The notes below the pieces were generated by a model. The model ran no database searches, was not told the DNA's origin, and worked only from the letters and a program-made list of their open reading frames with translations. Shown here piece by piece: positions 9,667 through 16,599 of a DNA stretch of 64,000 nt. Numbering within the stretch: the first letter of the stretch is position 1; each line of letters starts with the position of its first letter. The position numbers and the translations under genes were made by a program. Source of the stretch: Thermodesulfobacteriota bacterium (GTDB lineage Bacteria; Desulfobacterota; Desulfobulbia; Desulfobulbales; SURF-16); assembly GCA_039714595.1 (NCBI GenBank), contig JBDLJA010000008.1, positions 6,565-70,564 of the forward strand. The letters run 5' to 3'.

Positions 9667-10038
9667 ATGCTACGAAAAAAAATGAATATACGAATAATCA
9701 TATATTGCGCATTAATCTCTATATTTGCTTCTGCAATAACACCCATTTTCACCCTCATCACTTATATCCCGGACGAAGGCGAAATGGTCTATGACACAAC
9801 AAAAGAAGACGAAGAGAAAATGATCAATATGTCAAGTGAGGAACTAGACAACTATGTATCCAAACATGTAAAAATGAAAAGGCTTACAGGTTTTGAACGA
9901 ATTACATACCTGTTTTCCCGCCCTTCAATGGTTTTATATCACAAGGGTCTCTTATTAAGCACATTTGCAATTGTCTTTTCGTCAACATTAACAGCTAGTT
10001 TTCTTACGGTTAAACAATTGAAAAAGTCAAAAGAATAA
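9667..10038 (+). CDS. hypothetical small membrane protein (cassette-like ORF 1)
   Basis: 123 aa, AT-rich codon usage unlike the flanking genes, two hydrophobic segments. An attC site follows immediately. The start could instead be the ATG at 9682. Confidence 0.5.
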   Translation: MLRKKMNIRIIIYCALISIFASAITPIFTLITYIPDEGEMVYDTTKEDEEKMINMSSEELDNYVSKHVKMKRLTGFERITYLFSRPSMVLYHKGLLLSTFAIVFSSTLTASFLTVKQLKKSKE

Positions 10039-10042
10039 AACC

Positions 10043-10166
10043 GCATAACAATACGCTCAAGTACGACGCGCAAACTTGCGCTTTGCTGAATCGGCTTCGG
10101 CCATCTTTACTACAACCCGAACTTACTCAACCTCGGCTAGGCGCGCGTCTTAGCTTTGCGTTAGAT
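10043..10166 (+). mobile_element. integron attC recombination site (124 bp)
   Basis: R'' GCATAAC (10043-10049), then AATAC, then L''-like GCTCAAG. At the other end L'-like CTTAGC, then TTTGC, then R' GTTAGAT (10160-10166). Inner arms GACGCGC/GCGCGTC pair. It begins 5 nt after the ORF1 stop and ends 30 nt before the next ORF. Confidence 0.7.
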
Positions 10167-10196
10167 GTCACAATAATAATTTTGGAGAAATGCATA

Positions 10197-10673
10197 ATGA
10201 GAAAATCAATCGTAATATTTATTTTAATAATTTTTTATCCAGTATCATCTGGGGCAATTGACACTGTACATGACAGAGAGATTGAGCGACAAAACAGAAT
10301 AGCAAATATTGAAAAAACAGTACCAGTAAGTCGTCCAGCTCAACCAACCAAACCAGGATATACACTTAAAGACCTTGCAGATCATACTAAAACAATGTCG
10401 GATAATGACTGGAAGTCTTTACGAAATTTAGAAAATTGTCTTGCGAAAGTTGAAGAAGAACAATTAGGAGGACTATTCGCAGGGTTAATGTCTTTCAATT
10501 TAACCGAAAGTATTTTTGCAATTGGAGAAGCTATGTTTAATGAAATAAAAGGAAGTGATTGTCATGAAAAAAACCAACTAACACATAATGCTGCAACATA
10601 TAAGAATATTTATACATCTTTAACAAGAGACCAAATAAGAAATCAAAAGAATGCAGCTCGTGATATTCTTTAG
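10197..10673 (+). CDS. hypothetical secreted protein (cassette-like ORF 2)
   Basis: Start moved to ATG 10197, which has a GGAGA RBS. Signal-peptide-like MRKSIVIFILIIFYPVSSGA. AT-rich. No recognisable domain. Confidence 0.55.
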   Translation: MRKSIVIFILIIFYPVSSGAIDTVHDREIERQNRIANIEKTVPVSRPAQPTKPGYTLKDLADHTKTMSDNDWKSLRNLENCLAKVEEEQLGGLFAGLMSFNLTESIFAIGEAMFNEIKGSDCHEKNQLTHNAATYKNIYTSLTRDQIRNQKNAARDIL

Positions 10674-10686
10674 GTTTTAAAATTAC

Positions 10687-10795
10687 ATCTAACAGTTCAA
10701 TCCATCTGACTCGCGAGATCGTTCCCTTGGCCAGTTCAGCGGCCTTACTTCCCTGGCGCCTTATGCGCCATTTGCTGGGCAGGCGCGGGTTGTCT
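10687..10795 (+). mobile_element. degenerate attC-like site
   Basis: The left half, ATCTAAC-AGTTC-AATCC, fits an R''/spacer/L'' layout and starts 14 nt after the ORF2 stop. The right end, GTTGTCT, is a poor GTTRRRY match and L-box pairing is weak. Confidence 0.35.
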
Positions 10796-10829
10796 TGTGC
10801 CTTATGAATACAAAAAGGAGAGTAAAATT

Positions 10830-11246
10830 ATGAAAAAATTATTATTTGTCCTGCTTTTTATAGTTAGTTCAGCTAGTTCTTCTCTTGCTAGTGAACCTGC
10901 CATTGAAGCAGGTTTCAAGGCGTTTAAAGAAGATGGGGTTGAAGCCGCGTGGAAGAGTTGGGCTAAAAATGGCCCACTGGAAGGGAGCACAGAATTAATG
11001 GCTCAAGCCTCTCAATTTGGTCAAATAGGAACTTATTTCGGTAAATATTTTAGCCATGAGTATGTAGCAACAAAACAGTTAGGCCCAAATAACAAAATAG
11101 TTTTCGTCATCATGAACCTGGAAAAAGGGCCATTATTTGGCAGGTTTTTGGTATTTCGCAACTCAGAAGGCAAATGGACATTACCAAGCTTTAAATTCAA
11201 TACTGATCCAGAGCAAATTTGGCCCGCAACAATATACTCTAATTAA
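10830..11246 (+). CDS. hypothetical secreted protein (cassette-like ORF 3)
   Basis: Start moved to ATG 10830, which has an AAGGAGAG RBS. Signal peptide MKKLLFVLLFIVSSASSSLASE. AT-rich. No recognisable domain. Confidence 0.55.
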   Translation: MKKLLFVLLFIVSSASSSLASEPAIEAGFKAFKEDGVEAAWKSWAKNGPLEGSTELMAQASQFGQIGTYFGKYFSHEYVATKQLGPNNKIVFVIMNLEKGPLFGRFLVFRNSEGKWTLPSFKFNTDPEQIWPATIYSN

Positions 11247-12344: not shown

Positions 12345-13274
12345 ATGCGTTCCTTCGGCAGCAGAATCTCTCTTGTTGTTTCATTATTCATGCTCGTTTC
12401 ATTCATGGCGGGCTGCAGGGTCTATGTCCCGCCTCCGCCGACCCCGGTGGTCGTCGCCCCGGTGCCTCAGCCGCGTCATCATCGCCACCGGCCAAAGATC
12501 TACAACTATCGTTATTTCCCCGGGCCGCAGGTCTACTATGATCGTGGCCGGGAAGTCTACTTCTACCTGGAAGGGAATGCCTGGCGCACTGCCGCTGTGC
12601 TGCCGCGCCACATCCATATTGAGTTTGATGATTTTTTACGGGTGGAGCTTGAAGGCCCCAGGCCCTACGTCCATCATAAGACGGTGTATAAGCGCTATCC
12701 CCCCTATCGCTACAAGAAGAAGCACAAGAAGCGCCGTAAGGTTGTAAAAAAACAGCGTAAATATAGCAAGAAGCAGCACAAAGAGTATCGCAAGGACCAA
12801 AAAGAACGGCGCAAGTATGAAGAGATGCGCAGTAGAGAGCATCGCAAGGATCTAAAAGAGCAGCGCAAGTACGAAGAGATGCGCCGCGAAGAGGATCGCC
12901 AGGATCTAAGGGAGCGGCGTAAATACGAAGAGATGCGCGGCAAAGAGGATCGCCGGGATCACCGGGAGCAGCGCAGATACGAAGAGATGCGCGGCAAAGA
13001 GGATCGCCGGGATCACCGGGAGCAGCGCAGATACGAAGAGATGCGCAGCAAAGAGGATCGCCGGGATCATAGGGCAGAACGCAGATACGAAGAGGAGCAC
13101 AGGGGCGATAAAAAGCCGCGTAAGTATAAGAAAAAACACAAGAAAGATTACCGCGAAGACGATGATGAGCGGGAATATCGGGAATATGAGGATAGGCCGC
13201 GTGGCGACTATCGTCAGGATGGCGATCGGCGCCAATACGATGGGGACCGCTATGAGTACTATCGCCAGGATTAA
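12345..13274 (+). CDS. lipoprotein with highly charged Arg/Lys/Glu/Asp tandem-repeat C-terminal region
   Basis: Lipobox LVSFMAGC. Pro-rich linker. Tyr-rich domain (YRYFPGPQVYYDRGREVYFYLEGNAWR). Then about six 18-aa repeats of the form (K/R)E(Q/R)R(K/R)YEEMR(G/S)KEDRRDH. AAAGGAG RBS. Confidence 0.75.
   Translation: MRSFGSRISLVVSLFMLVSFMAGCRVYVPPPPTPVVVAPVPQPRHHRHRPKIYNYRYFPGPQVYYDRGREVYFYLEGNAWRTAAVLPRHIHIEFDDFLRVELEGPRPYVHHKTVYKRYPPYRYKKKHKKRRKVVKKQRKYSKKQHKEYRKDQKERRKYEEMRSREHRKDLKEQRKYEEMRREEDRQDLRERRKYEEMRGKEDRRDHREQRRYEEMRGKEDRRDHREQRRYEEMRSKEDRRDHRAERRYEEEHRGDKKPRKYKKKHKKDYREDDDEREYREYEDRPRGDYRQDGDRRQYDGDRYEYYRQD
12801..13100 (+). repeat. in-frame 54-bp tandem repeat, about 5.5 copies
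   Basis: Units start at 12801, 12855, 12909, 12963, 13017 and 13071. Units 12963-13016 and 13017-13070 are 52/54 identical. Confidence 0.9.
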
Positions 13275-14558: not shown

Positions 14559-14963
14559 AGGGCGGGAAAATCCTCTCTCCTCTGCTGCCAACCAATCTCA
14601 TTTTTTATTCTCGGCTTCACCCCTTCTCTTTAGAATTTGCTCGCCAAATCCCCATGGCGCTTCTCTCCTGCCAACATCAGCAGCGATCTAGCTGATATCA
14701 TTCATTAGTCTTGATTTTCTCCCGCAATACCGTTACCTCTTCCTGACAGACTAATCTTGTTTTCCCGGCCCTGTCATGGGGGAGGCCTGGGCGTTAGGGT
14801 CAGCCTTTTGTCCGGGAAACAGGGTAGGGGGGCAATATCTAAGGTGTATAGGCTCAGCTCTCGACCTATTAGCGTCTGTAAGTATGTTGCCCCGCCCTAT
14901 CTAACCCTGAGAATCAGAGGTCCTATTTGTAGCACAGGCCTCCAAATAAAAAAATGTATAGCC

Positions 14964-15539
14964 ATGGATAAGAAATTTGTCAGGTGGATTGTTGGAGCAG
15001 TCGTTGTCCCCTTAATAATAGCCGTTTTGAGTATATTCGGTGTTCAGATAAAGGATGCTCTATTTCCTGCACCTCCTCCAGAAATTGGAGACGGGCTAAC
15101 AGCTTCATTGGAGAAAAGGCTGATTGTTCTGGAAGCGAAATTTGACACTATTGCCAGATTTATCCATGTGCAACCAGTTTCTAAAGATGTTGCCTCAGAA
15201 AGAAAAAGTATATCTGATGCGGAAAAATTCAACGATGGAATCACAATTAAGAATGACTCTCAATACTCGGGCCGAAATCTTTATGTCGGTAAAAGGGCTT
15301 GGGACTGGACCGTCTACCTGGAAGCTGATCTTGATATCTTAAAAAGGATATCTTGTGTAAAATATCATCTTCACCCAACCTTCGGAGATAGCCCCAAAAC
15401 AATATGCCACCAAGGCAAGCAGTCAAAAGCATTTTCTTTTTCCACTACAGGGTGGGGTACATTTAATATTGGAGTAACAGTAGAGTTTAAAGATGGGTCA
15501 GAATTTACCACCAATCATTATCTTACATTTGCTAAATAG
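14964..15539 (+). CDS. membrane-anchored protein with C-terminal prokaryotic YEATS-like (pYEATS) domain
   Basis: 191 aa from ATG 14964. The 69-codon upstream extension in the ORF track is GC-skewed, non-protein-like sequence. TM helix WIVGAVVVPLIIAVLSIFGV. The C-terminus, WDWTVYLEA..ISCVKYHLHPTFGDSP..TTGWGTFNIGVTVEFKDG, matches the YEATS fold pattern. Low GC. Confidence 0.6.
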   Translation: MDKKFVRWIVGAVVVPLIIAVLSIFGVQIKDALFPAPPPEIGDGLTASLEKRLIVLEAKFDTIARFIHVQPVSKDVASERKSISDAEKFNDGITIKNDSQYSGRNLYVGKRAWDWTVYLEADLDILKRISCVKYHLHPTFGDSPKTICHQGKQSKAFSFSTTGWGTFNIGVTVEFKDGSEFTTNHYLTFAK

Positions 15540-15606
15540 ATATTAATGGTTCTACTTTATAAGAAGAGTAATATGTTTAAATATCAACAAAGGGGGGAGC
15601 ATACTA

Positions 15607-16488
15607 ATGGCAAAATTAATTCTTTCACTTGATGGCGGTGGCATACGGGGAGCGGCAACAGCGGAGTTCCTGCGCAAGCTGGAAAAGCAGTTGGCTAAAC
15701 CGTTACATAATACCTTTGATATGTTCATTGGCACCTCCACCGGGGGAATTATCGCGGCGGCCATAAGCAGCCTGAAGATGGCGGGCGAGGACTTGGCTCA
15801 GCTCTATAATCAAGAGAATGGCAGGGAGATTTTTCCGCAATCGTTCTGGGACCGGACATTAATCACCCAGAACCAACCGAAGTACGATGGGGAAGGGAAA
15901 CTAAGTGTCTTGAAGAGGTACTTTGGCAAACGGCTGCTGAGGAGCTCAGCCAAGCCTCTGGTGGTAACCGCTTACGATGTTGAACGGCGTAAGCCAAAAC
16001 TGTTCAAGTCATATGAGGAAGATGACACGAGGGTGGTTGACGCGGTGAACGCCACCTCGGCCGCGCCCACCTATTTCCCCACGGTTGAGGTGAATGGCGC
16101 CTGGTTAATTGATGGCGGCGTGATTATCAACAACCCGACCATGACCGGATTTGCTGAGGCCAAAGAGAGGTGGCCGGATGAGGAGATCAAGATACTCTCT
16201 GTGGGCACCGGGACAAGAACCAGGCCCATTCCTGGGGAGAAGTCGGCGGACTATGGGGCCATAGGCTGGTTTAAGCACGATCTTTTGGGAGTTGTCACCG
16301 ATGAGGCCATTGTTCATCTCCAGGCCAAGACTATCCTGGCCGATAGATATGTGCGGGTAAATTCCGAGCTGAAAAAGGCGGACGACGACATGGACAACGT
16401 TAAACAGGGCAACCTGGACAACCTCAAAAAGCTTGGCCAGAAATGGTGGGCTGACCATGGCCAGGAGGCAATCAGTCTCTTGAGTTAG
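15607..16488 (+). CDS. patatin-like phospholipase
   Basis: DGGGIRG oxyanion-hole motif, GTSTG nucleophile elbow and LIDGGV catalytic Asp motif are all intact. 293 aa. GGGGGAG RBS. Confidence 0.85.
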   Translation: MAKLILSLDGGGIRGAATAEFLRKLEKQLAKPLHNTFDMFIGTSTGGIIAAAISSLKMAGEDLAQLYNQENGREIFPQSFWDRTLITQNQPKYDGEGKLSVLKRYFGKRLLRSSAKPLVVTAYDVERRKPKLFKSYEEDDTRVVDAVNATSAAPTYFPTVEVNGAWLIDGGVIINNPTMTGFAEAKERWPDEEIKILSVGTGTRTRPIPGEKSADYGAIGWFKHDLLGVVTDEAIVHLQAKTILADRYVRVNSELKKADDDMDNVKQGNLDNLKKLGQKWWADHGQEAISLLS

Positions 16489-16599
16489 GGGAGGGGGGCA
16501 ATTTATCTCTTTTCTGGCCGGCAGGAAGAGGGCGTGGAGGTAGAAAATTTCTTCCTTCCCCTGGTCGCCCTTTCCCCTTTGCCGGCCGAGAGGTTTCTT

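Follow-up and report, generated by a model that had tools for sequence, protein, structure and literature searches.

The two co-directional genes at 14964-15539 (gene 1) and 15607-16488 (gene 2), both on the + strand of the 64-kb window (the whole 64,000-nt stretch of Thermodesulfobacteriota contig JBDLJA010000008.1 analyzed here), were probably two independent single-gene accessory units that had become neighbors by chance in a variable region upstream of a homoserine dehydrogenase gene. Gene 1 encoded a 191-aa (amino acid) membrane-anchored protein with a C-terminal pYEATS domain, gene 2 encoded a 293-aa patatin-like protein related to CapV, and a 67-nt spacer lay between them; housekeeping genes were found directly 3' of the pair. 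The open reading frames (ORFs) and their spacing were exactly as given in the initial annotation, which had proposed a two-gene conflict module with a membrane-tethered reader gating a phospholipase effector, and the peptides it had listed, namely WDWTVYLEA, LKRISCVKYHLHPTFGDSP, and FSTTGWGTFNIGVTVEFKDG for gene 1 and DGGGIRG, GTSTG, and DGG for gene 2, were all confirmed in the translations. Proteins identical to both products were on record at NCBI from an 85-kb contig of a Thermodesulfobacteriota metagenome-assembled genome, under the names 'pYEATS domain-containing protein' (gene 1) and 'patatin-like phospholipase family protein' (gene 2).

The initial annotation had staked its module on the two genes being kept together in other genomes, and they were not. 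Orthologues of gene 1 (34 to 69% identity) were counted at loci where the downstream sequence reached 0.8 kb or more, and none of the seven independent loci (L001, L003, L004, L005, L006, L075, and L077/78) contained a patatin; their neighbors varied from locus to locus: cohesin/PKD and cyclic nucleoside monophosphate (cNMP)-binding proteins in L001, a PEP-CTERM protein in L003, a peptidoglycan-binding protein in L004, a metallophosphatase plus an M43 peptidase in L005, and unknown proteins in L006, with no common conserved DNA in the flanks of the orthologues. Orthologues of gene 2 (57 to 78% identity; L009/10, L011, L012/13, L014, and L071-73) were solitary: a pYEATS gene was found in none of these seven loci, a cyclase was absent from their Pfam lists too, and the neighbors were mostly housekeeping genes (histidine kinase plus electron transfer flavoprotein, RNase J plus thiE, dnaE plus proB, a glycosyltransferase, and a CBS-like protein). 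A search of 1.84 billion proteins gave no fusions, a patatin domain being present in none of the 150 best pYEATS representatives, and a plasmid search yielded one unrelated small pYEATS gene amid mobile-element genes. A pair of transmembrane (TM)-pYEATS plus patatin was absent from the PADLOC models and from the literature searched, where the YEATS matches concerned eukaryotic proteins or author names, in line with the earlier statement that no such pair was known. Gene 1 and gene 2 each added a member to a family already known, and their pairing appeared to be unique to this contig.

The contigs carrying gene 1 orthologues ended less than 500 nt upstream of the orthologue in five of six independent cases (L003, L004, L005, L006, and L077), which may reflect a repeat there or a junction that varies between strains.

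The two genes also differed in base composition. The native neighbors (hom, apgM-like, tsaB, rseP, and dxr) had a GC content of 0.60 to 0.66 and a GC content at third codon positions (GC3) of 0.81 to 0.84, the window as a whole having a GC content of 0.58; the corresponding GC and GC3 values were 0.40 and 0.33 for gene 1, and 0.53 and 0.65 for gene 2. In consecutive 100-nt windows, GC content was 0.28 to 0.44 over 14900-15599 (0.28 in 15500-15599) and 0.48 to 0.59 across the patatin gene, so that the compositional step fell at the start of gene 2, with gene 1 and the spacer forming a separate AT-rich block; the locally AT-rich patch, earlier ascribed to both genes, was confined to gene 1 and the spacer and did not extend into the patatin gene. 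A gene 1 orthologue was AT-rich in a GC-rich host too (L003, 0.41 versus 0.54 for its contig), and such AT-richness of the orthologues, whatever the host, would be expected of an orphan gene that moves laterally. Neither a terminator-like site nor, on the coding strand, a promoter-like site was found in the spacer by a scan that was uninformative, its site counts being at shuffle level. PADLOC gave no further defense-model match within ~13 kb of the pair, and an Rfam scan of 9-20 kb of the window gave no match.

The YEATS assignment of gene 1 was sound. The product matched Pfam pYEATS PF20305 (2.1e-19, 69.6 bits versus a cutoff of 26.9, residues 112-190) and Pfam YEATS PF03366 (1.1e-13, 51.4 bits versus a cutoff of 22) with a single pYEATS domain, and it shared 38 to 61% identity with 12 aligned relatives. 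The family alignment displayed a constant order: an 8-residue basic N-terminal tail, a 19-residue transmembrane helix, an invariant D-x-LFP-x-P-x-P motif, a helical segment (with stalk residues R52, L53, and E57 invariant across the 12 relatives), and the YEATS domain. The AlphaFold2 (AF2) model, built on the alignment with these 12 relatives, contained a helix at residues 3-33, the stalk helix at residues 46-67 with a low predicted local distance difference test (pLDDT) score, and the YEATS domain at residues ~85-187 with pLDDT of 84 to 95. In a Foldseek comparison of this domain with the PDB, the top 50 matches were YEATS domains only (GAS41, Taf14, Yaf9, YEATS2, and ENL), with E values down to 2e-6, target-normalized TM-scores (template modeling scores) mostly of 0.5 to 0.68, and a root-mean-square deviation mostly of 2 to 3 Å over ~104 columns. 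The profile and structure searches thus agreed with the earlier description of a transmembrane helix, a helical linker, and a YEATS domain of eukaryotic pattern.

The aromatic cage of gene 1 was conserved as well. In a phmmer comparison with PDB sequences, LHPTFG and TGWGTF of gene 1 aligned with LHESYG and TGWGEF of GAS41, respectively; the resulting cage residues H137, T139, F140, W164, G165, and F167 were invariant in the subfamily, and they correspond to what we take to be H71, S73, Y74, W93, G94, and F96 in the numbering of GAS41. The GWGxF motif was kept in ~200 of the 206 pYEATS domains collected, while conservation of the LHPTF region in that set was inflated, this region having served as the search pattern for pYEATS loci. 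The PHROGs search was empty for gene 1, and no relatives were found in a scan of viral contigs.

The position of gene 1 in the membrane was predicted from the charges flanking its helix. In all 11 family members with complete N termini, the N-terminal tail carried two or three Lys/Arg versus zero or one acidic residue, and the 15 residues past the helix carried one or two basic versus two or three acidic residues. When the positive-inside rule was applied to these charges, gene 1 was predicted to be an N-in/C-out signal anchor with its YEATS domain facing the periplasm. Classical Sec signal peptides were present on tandem-pYEATS and caspase-pYEATS relatives, and an N-terminal hydrophobic segment was detected by a strict test in 102 of 133 representative pYEATS proteins, several more lying just below the threshold; among the pYEATS proteins, TIR fusions alone looked cytoplasmic. 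Peptidases were the commonest fusion partners in 67 longer representatives (papain C1 in nine, caspase C14 in four, matrixin M10 in four, and thermolysin M4 in one). The patatin encoded by gene 2 opened straight with its first beta-strand and glycine loop and had no export signal. Because the YEATS domain was predicted to be periplasmic and only an 8-residue tail to be cytoplasmic, gene 1 would have no obvious route by which to gate a cytosolic lipase; the predicted compartment, the difference in composition, and the lack of a nearby defense-model match all spoke against the earlier proposal of a tethered reader gating the lipase.

Gene 2 was a patatin-like lipase with its three catalytic motifs intact, as had been claimed. 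It matched Patatin PF01734 (1e-29, 104.6 bits versus a cutoff of 27.7), and the nucleophile S44 and the catalytic D169 were invariant in 120 relatives, with G10-G12 and R14 invariant or nearly so. The AF2 model (pLDDT 94) gave query-normalized TM-scores of ~0.74 to 0.86 against AbCapV, CapE, and the plant patatin Pat17, and the fold search did not separate a CapV-like from a plant-patatin-like identity. Gene 2 matched the PADLOC models of phospholipase effectors of the cyclic oligonucleotide-based antiphage signaling system (CBASS) at 4e-66, and it narrowly missed the NCBIfam equivalog CBASS_lipase (198.1 bits versus a cutoff of 200). The initial annotation had proposed that an empty defense-model search would support novelty of the locus; this was the outcome for gene 1, which had no PADLOC match, and not for gene 2.

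These matches would fit an orphan CBASS-type effector to which gene 1 is irrelevant and whose activating cyclic nucleotide is supplied in trans, either from another part of the genome or by a phage, and the superposition on AbCapV and CapE points the same way. The contacts with cyclic GMP-AMP (cGAMP) argued otherwise. In AbCapV, F147, K149, D159, E207, and R279 are essential for cGAMP contact, and the C-terminal residues E328, T331, and K332 contribute (PMC12480259). In a phmmer alignment with AbCapV (8zr9), the first five corresponded to L132, K134, E138, E184, and A245 of gene 2, with low confidence near R279; the same columns held L/V, T/K, N/P/K/D, E, and G across the 120-member family, E207 being the only residue retained. 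The deposited AbCapV chain (364 residues) also exceeded gene 2 by ~70 residues, and gene 2 therefore had no counterpart for the region of E328, T331, and K332. Judged from these alignments, the AbCapV cGAMP pocket is not conserved in the gene 2 family. PADLOC detected no CD-NTase cyclase and no TIR among the 54 window ORFs scanned, an adjacent cyclase was seen neither in the window nor in the seven orthologue loci, the score lay under the equivalog cutoff, and a plant patatin fitted the fold equally well; a CBASS effector acting in trans was consequently regarded as quite unlikely.

Relatives of gene 2 were also found in phages: patatins of Wolbachia phage WO (MN180251, KX522565, and others) were similar to it over the full length with 36 to 37% identity, and phrog_25573 was matched at 4e-58.

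A 16-nt direct repeat with the consensus AGGG[T/G]AGGGGGGCAAT was present on both sides of the pair, and its exact 11-mer occurred at these two sites only in the window. A repeat of this length was reached in one of 1000 dinucleotide-preserving shuffles of the two intergenic regions (p ~0.001); blastn-short gave E = 0.033 for the repeat pair, and blastn found no longer homology around it. The repeat may be a scar left when both genes inserted together, an operator that they share, or a coincidence noticed post hoc. If it were a scar, both genes could have arrived in a single small mobile cassette with the repeat at its ends, as functionally uncoupled hitch-hiking cargo; the repeat statistics, the weak extra similarity around the repeat, and a GC3 below the native level in both genes would agree with such an arrival. 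Its cost would be a cassette with a step from 0.40 to 0.53 in GC content exactly at the start of gene 2, no integrase or transposase in the interval (ORF list and Pfam), and orthologues of either gene around which no equivalent repeat was seen, and joint arrival was held to be very unlikely. A separate proposal, namely that a decayed patatin copy lay 5' of gene 1, was dropped: blastn and blastx recovered nothing beyond the 16-mer. One gene 1 orthologue locus, L005, had a different repeat, the palindromic 17-mer TCCCGGC[C/G]CGCCGGGAT on both sides of the pYEATS orthologue (flanks of 296-886), which was hairpin-like or similar to repetitive extragenic palindromic (REP) elements.

Several observations weighed against chance adjacency of two independent genes: (i) both genes were on the same strand with a 67-nt gap and no terminator-like site within it, and co-transcription would be possible on this arrangement; (ii) GC3 of both genes lay below that of native genes, and both may thus be foreign; (iii) the 16-nt repeat bracketed exactly gene 1 plus gene 2; (iv) the topology of gene 1 was derived solely from the positive-inside rule; (v) TIR and caspase, which are death-type effectors, were fused to pYEATS domains elsewhere; (vi) the two sets of orthologue loci were small (seven plus seven) and mostly on short metagenomic contigs; and (vii) when a patatin hidden Markov model (HMM) was run on 138 distinct other pYEATS loci (~1.2 Mb in total), a patatin was found within 2 kb of the pYEATS gene in three of them (L055, L046, and L134).

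Together with the match of gene 2 to CBASS effector models, the arrangement of the genes, the bracketing repeat, the effector fusions, and the CapV-like or other patatins in or beside the pYEATS operons of L055, L046, and L134 would be what a minimal two-gene abortive-infection or conflict module predicts, in which the tethered pYEATS protein, on sensing a ligand, permits the patatin to break down membrane phospholipid. That module was nevertheless judged unlikely: neither gene was accompanied by the other in any of the seven orthologue loci on each side, the two genes differed in composition, the prediction placed the YEATS domain in the periplasm and left gene 1 a cytoplasmic tail of 8 residues, gene 1 had no PADLOC match and pYEATS-patatin fusions were lacking, and the patatins of L046 and L134 belonged to subfamilies other than that of gene 2, in loci with conserved partners that were absent from the window. 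The repeat kept both the module and the joint arrival under consideration at a low probability. A more specific version, in which the pair would be a rare and recently assembled minimal conflict cassette whose envelope-facing YEATS domain detects an acylated or N-acetylated envelope or phage ligand and releases, directly or through membrane perturbation, a cyclase-independent CapV-like lipase that kills the cell, was considered improbable; if true, a function would be assigned to a bacterial YEATS domain for the first time.

Under the preferred reading of two independent units, gene 1 would be a laterally acquired orphan encoding a type II (N-in, C-out) inner-membrane protein, whose 8-residue cytoplasmic tail and transmembrane helix anchor a stalk that displays one YEATS domain in the periplasm. 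Its His-Thr-Phe plus Gly-Trp-Gly-x-Phe clamp may bind a ligand of the envelope, or one coming in, through a planar amide or acyl group, and because an output domain is absent, the protein would act by binding or tethering rather than by signaling. Gene 2 would function separately as a cytoplasmic acyl hydrolase with a Ser44-Asp169 dyad, from a large family of solitary CapV-related lipases of ~295 aa that includes distant phage WO relatives, and it would work without a cognate cyclase and without the cGAMP pocket of AbCapV. Within this reading, the folds, motifs, phyletic contexts, and composition were observed directly, and the topology, the class of ligand, and the functional independence are inferred.

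The neighbors of all collected pYEATS loci were clustered, and two robust partnerships emerged: class I and class II. Class I (50 loci from many phyla) was composed of a two-TM-helix (2-TM) protein of ~170 to 230 aa directly upstream of a tandem-pYEATS gene with a Sec signal, and the stop and start codons of the two genes overlapped (ATGA) in many loci. The 2-TM partner examined had no Pfam match, and the tandem-pYEATS protein examined had no PADLOC match. A homology between the N-terminal half of gene 1 and the class I 2-TM partner was also considered and rejected (no hmmsearch match; hhalign probability 11%).

Class II (16 loci) was composed of a TIR-TPR-S gene (~450 aa; Pfam MAP3K_TRAF_bd and TPR-S) plus a TIR-like gene (~230 aa), both upstream of a pYEATS or pYEATS-TIR gene, and two of its loci also carried a patatin: (i) L055 had a CapV-like patatin (PADLOC 3.5e-44) inside the gene string, its pYEATS protein having no fused TIR, and (ii) L046 had a ThsB-like TIR and a patatin after the string, the patatin being ~1 kb downstream. 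An association of pYEATS with patatin was therefore not imaginary, but it existed in a different, cytoplasmic, multigene setting, and a lipase effector linked to pYEATS is better sought in the strings of L055 and L046 than in the window pair. L046 and L134 also carried conserved pYEATS partners missing from the window, in which HMMs of all four partner families gave no match.

Region 1222-8964 of L134 contained genes for a secreted nuclease, a PhoD-like phosphatase, a patatin, the 2-TM plus tandem-pYEATS pair, a DNA methyltransferase, and a restriction-enzyme-like protein, all identities except that of the patatin being a reading of ORF translations; by its gene content, this region looks like a defense island.

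The comparison was also applied to eukaryotic YEATS readers (GAS41/YEATS4, AF9, Taf14, Yaf9, and YEATS2) and to the pYEATS classes. Gene 1 shared with the eukaryotic readers the Ig-like beta-sandwich and the aligned signature residues, but it was bacterial and membrane-anchored, with ~20 to 25% identity, and its domain was predicted to lie outside the cytoplasm, in a compartment devoid of chromatin and histones; because of this prediction, its ligand would not be a histone acyl-lysine. The class I tandem pYEATS proteins (PF20305) had the same domain, with export predicted for gene 1 as well, but gene 1 had one domain instead of two, an uncleaved anchor plus stalk instead of a cleavable signal peptide, and no 2-TM partner. 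The class II TIR/TPR-S/pYEATS loci again had the same pYEATS domain, but their pYEATS proteins contained no transmembrane segment or signal peptide, were presumably cytoplasmic, and never occurred without TIR-TPR-S and TIR-like genes, of which the window had none. Class II loci are said to have been described by the Aravind group, by comparative genomics only.

Two groups of patatins were compared with gene 2. The CBASS effectors CapV and CapE (AbCapV 8zr9, VcCapV, and CapE 9iom) were likewise single-domain patatins with a Gly-loop/Arg, a GxSxG Ser, and a DGG Asp, but gene 2 was solitary with no CD-NTase nearby, shorter, not conserved at the cGAMP contacts, and just under the equivalog cutoff. 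The patatins of phage WO and phrog_25573 stood alone as gene 2 did, but gene 2 was found in a chromosomal, non-prophage context, and the phage WO patatins have themselves no established function.

The pair carries little weight as a candidate defense system, because it was conserved in neither set of orthologue loci and appears to occur on this contig alone; the more interesting leads are the pYEATS loci of classes I and II. Bacterial YEATS domains keep the full aromatic cage of the acyl-lysine type, yet most of those sampled were predicted to be exported or anchored with the domain outside, and exported pYEATS proteins were often fused to peptidases or accompanied by the 2-TM partner, which points to an envelope ligand rather than a chromatin-like mark. 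The existence of a large solitary CapV-like patatin family that lacks the cGAMP pocket means that a match to CBASS effector models is not by itself evidence of defense.

Table 1. Positions of the features of the gene pair in the window and of the pYEATS loci used for comparison
Feature	Sequence	Position	Strand	Remark
Repeat copy, upstream (AGGGTAGGGGGGCAAT)	Window	14821..14836	+	16-nt direct repeat, 128 nt 5' of gene 1
Gene 1	Window	14964..15539	+	191-aa bitopic protein: TM anchor, helical stalk, C-terminal pYEATS; Pfam and 12 aligned relatives
Signal-anchor TM helix, residues 9-27 (IVGAVVVPLIIAVLSIFGV)	Window	14988..15044	+	Mean Kyte-Doolittle hydropathy 2.84
Helical stalk, residues 46-67, possible coiled coil (LEKRLIVLEAKFDTIARF)	Window	15099..15164	+	AF2 helix at low pLDDT
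YEATS-fold beta-sandwich, residues ~94-188	Window	15243..15527	+	AF2, Foldseek, and GAS41 alignment
Spacer, AT-rich, 67 nt	Window	15540..15606	+	Strong Shine-Dalgarno sequence of gene 2: GGGGGGAG, 15592-15599
Gene 2	Window	15607..16488	+	293-aa predicted cytoplasmic patatin-like acyl hydrolase; Gly loop 9-15, nucleophile S44, catalytic D169
Repeat copy, downstream (AGGGGAGGGGGGCAAT)	Window	16487..16502	+	Starts inside the patatin stop codon
Class I example	L020	5225-6519		
Class I example	L023	9411-10567		
Class I example	L134	5696-6963		
Class II string with patatin	L055	5479-10165		
Class II string with patatin	L046	7922-13063		

Three other regions of the window stood out. A second AT-rich islet at 9667-11246 (GC 0.34 to 0.38; GC3 0.21 to 0.34) resembled gene 1 in composition and contained three small ORFs with N-terminal signal or transmembrane segments and no Pfam, PADLOC, or PHROG match above threshold. 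The ORF at 12345-13274 encoded a 309-aa protein with a lipoprotein-like N terminus (…FMAGC), an extremely charged C-terminal half, and no family match; this half was encoded by an array of 5.9 copies of a 54-nt tandem repeat (RRYEEMRGKEDRRDHREQ units) at 12779-13094. None of the other Mza components was seen among the 54 window ORFs scanned, while residues 170-432 of a 433-aa protein encoded at 197-1498 on the - strand were similar to the C-terminal part of PADLOC MzaA (3.3e-69).

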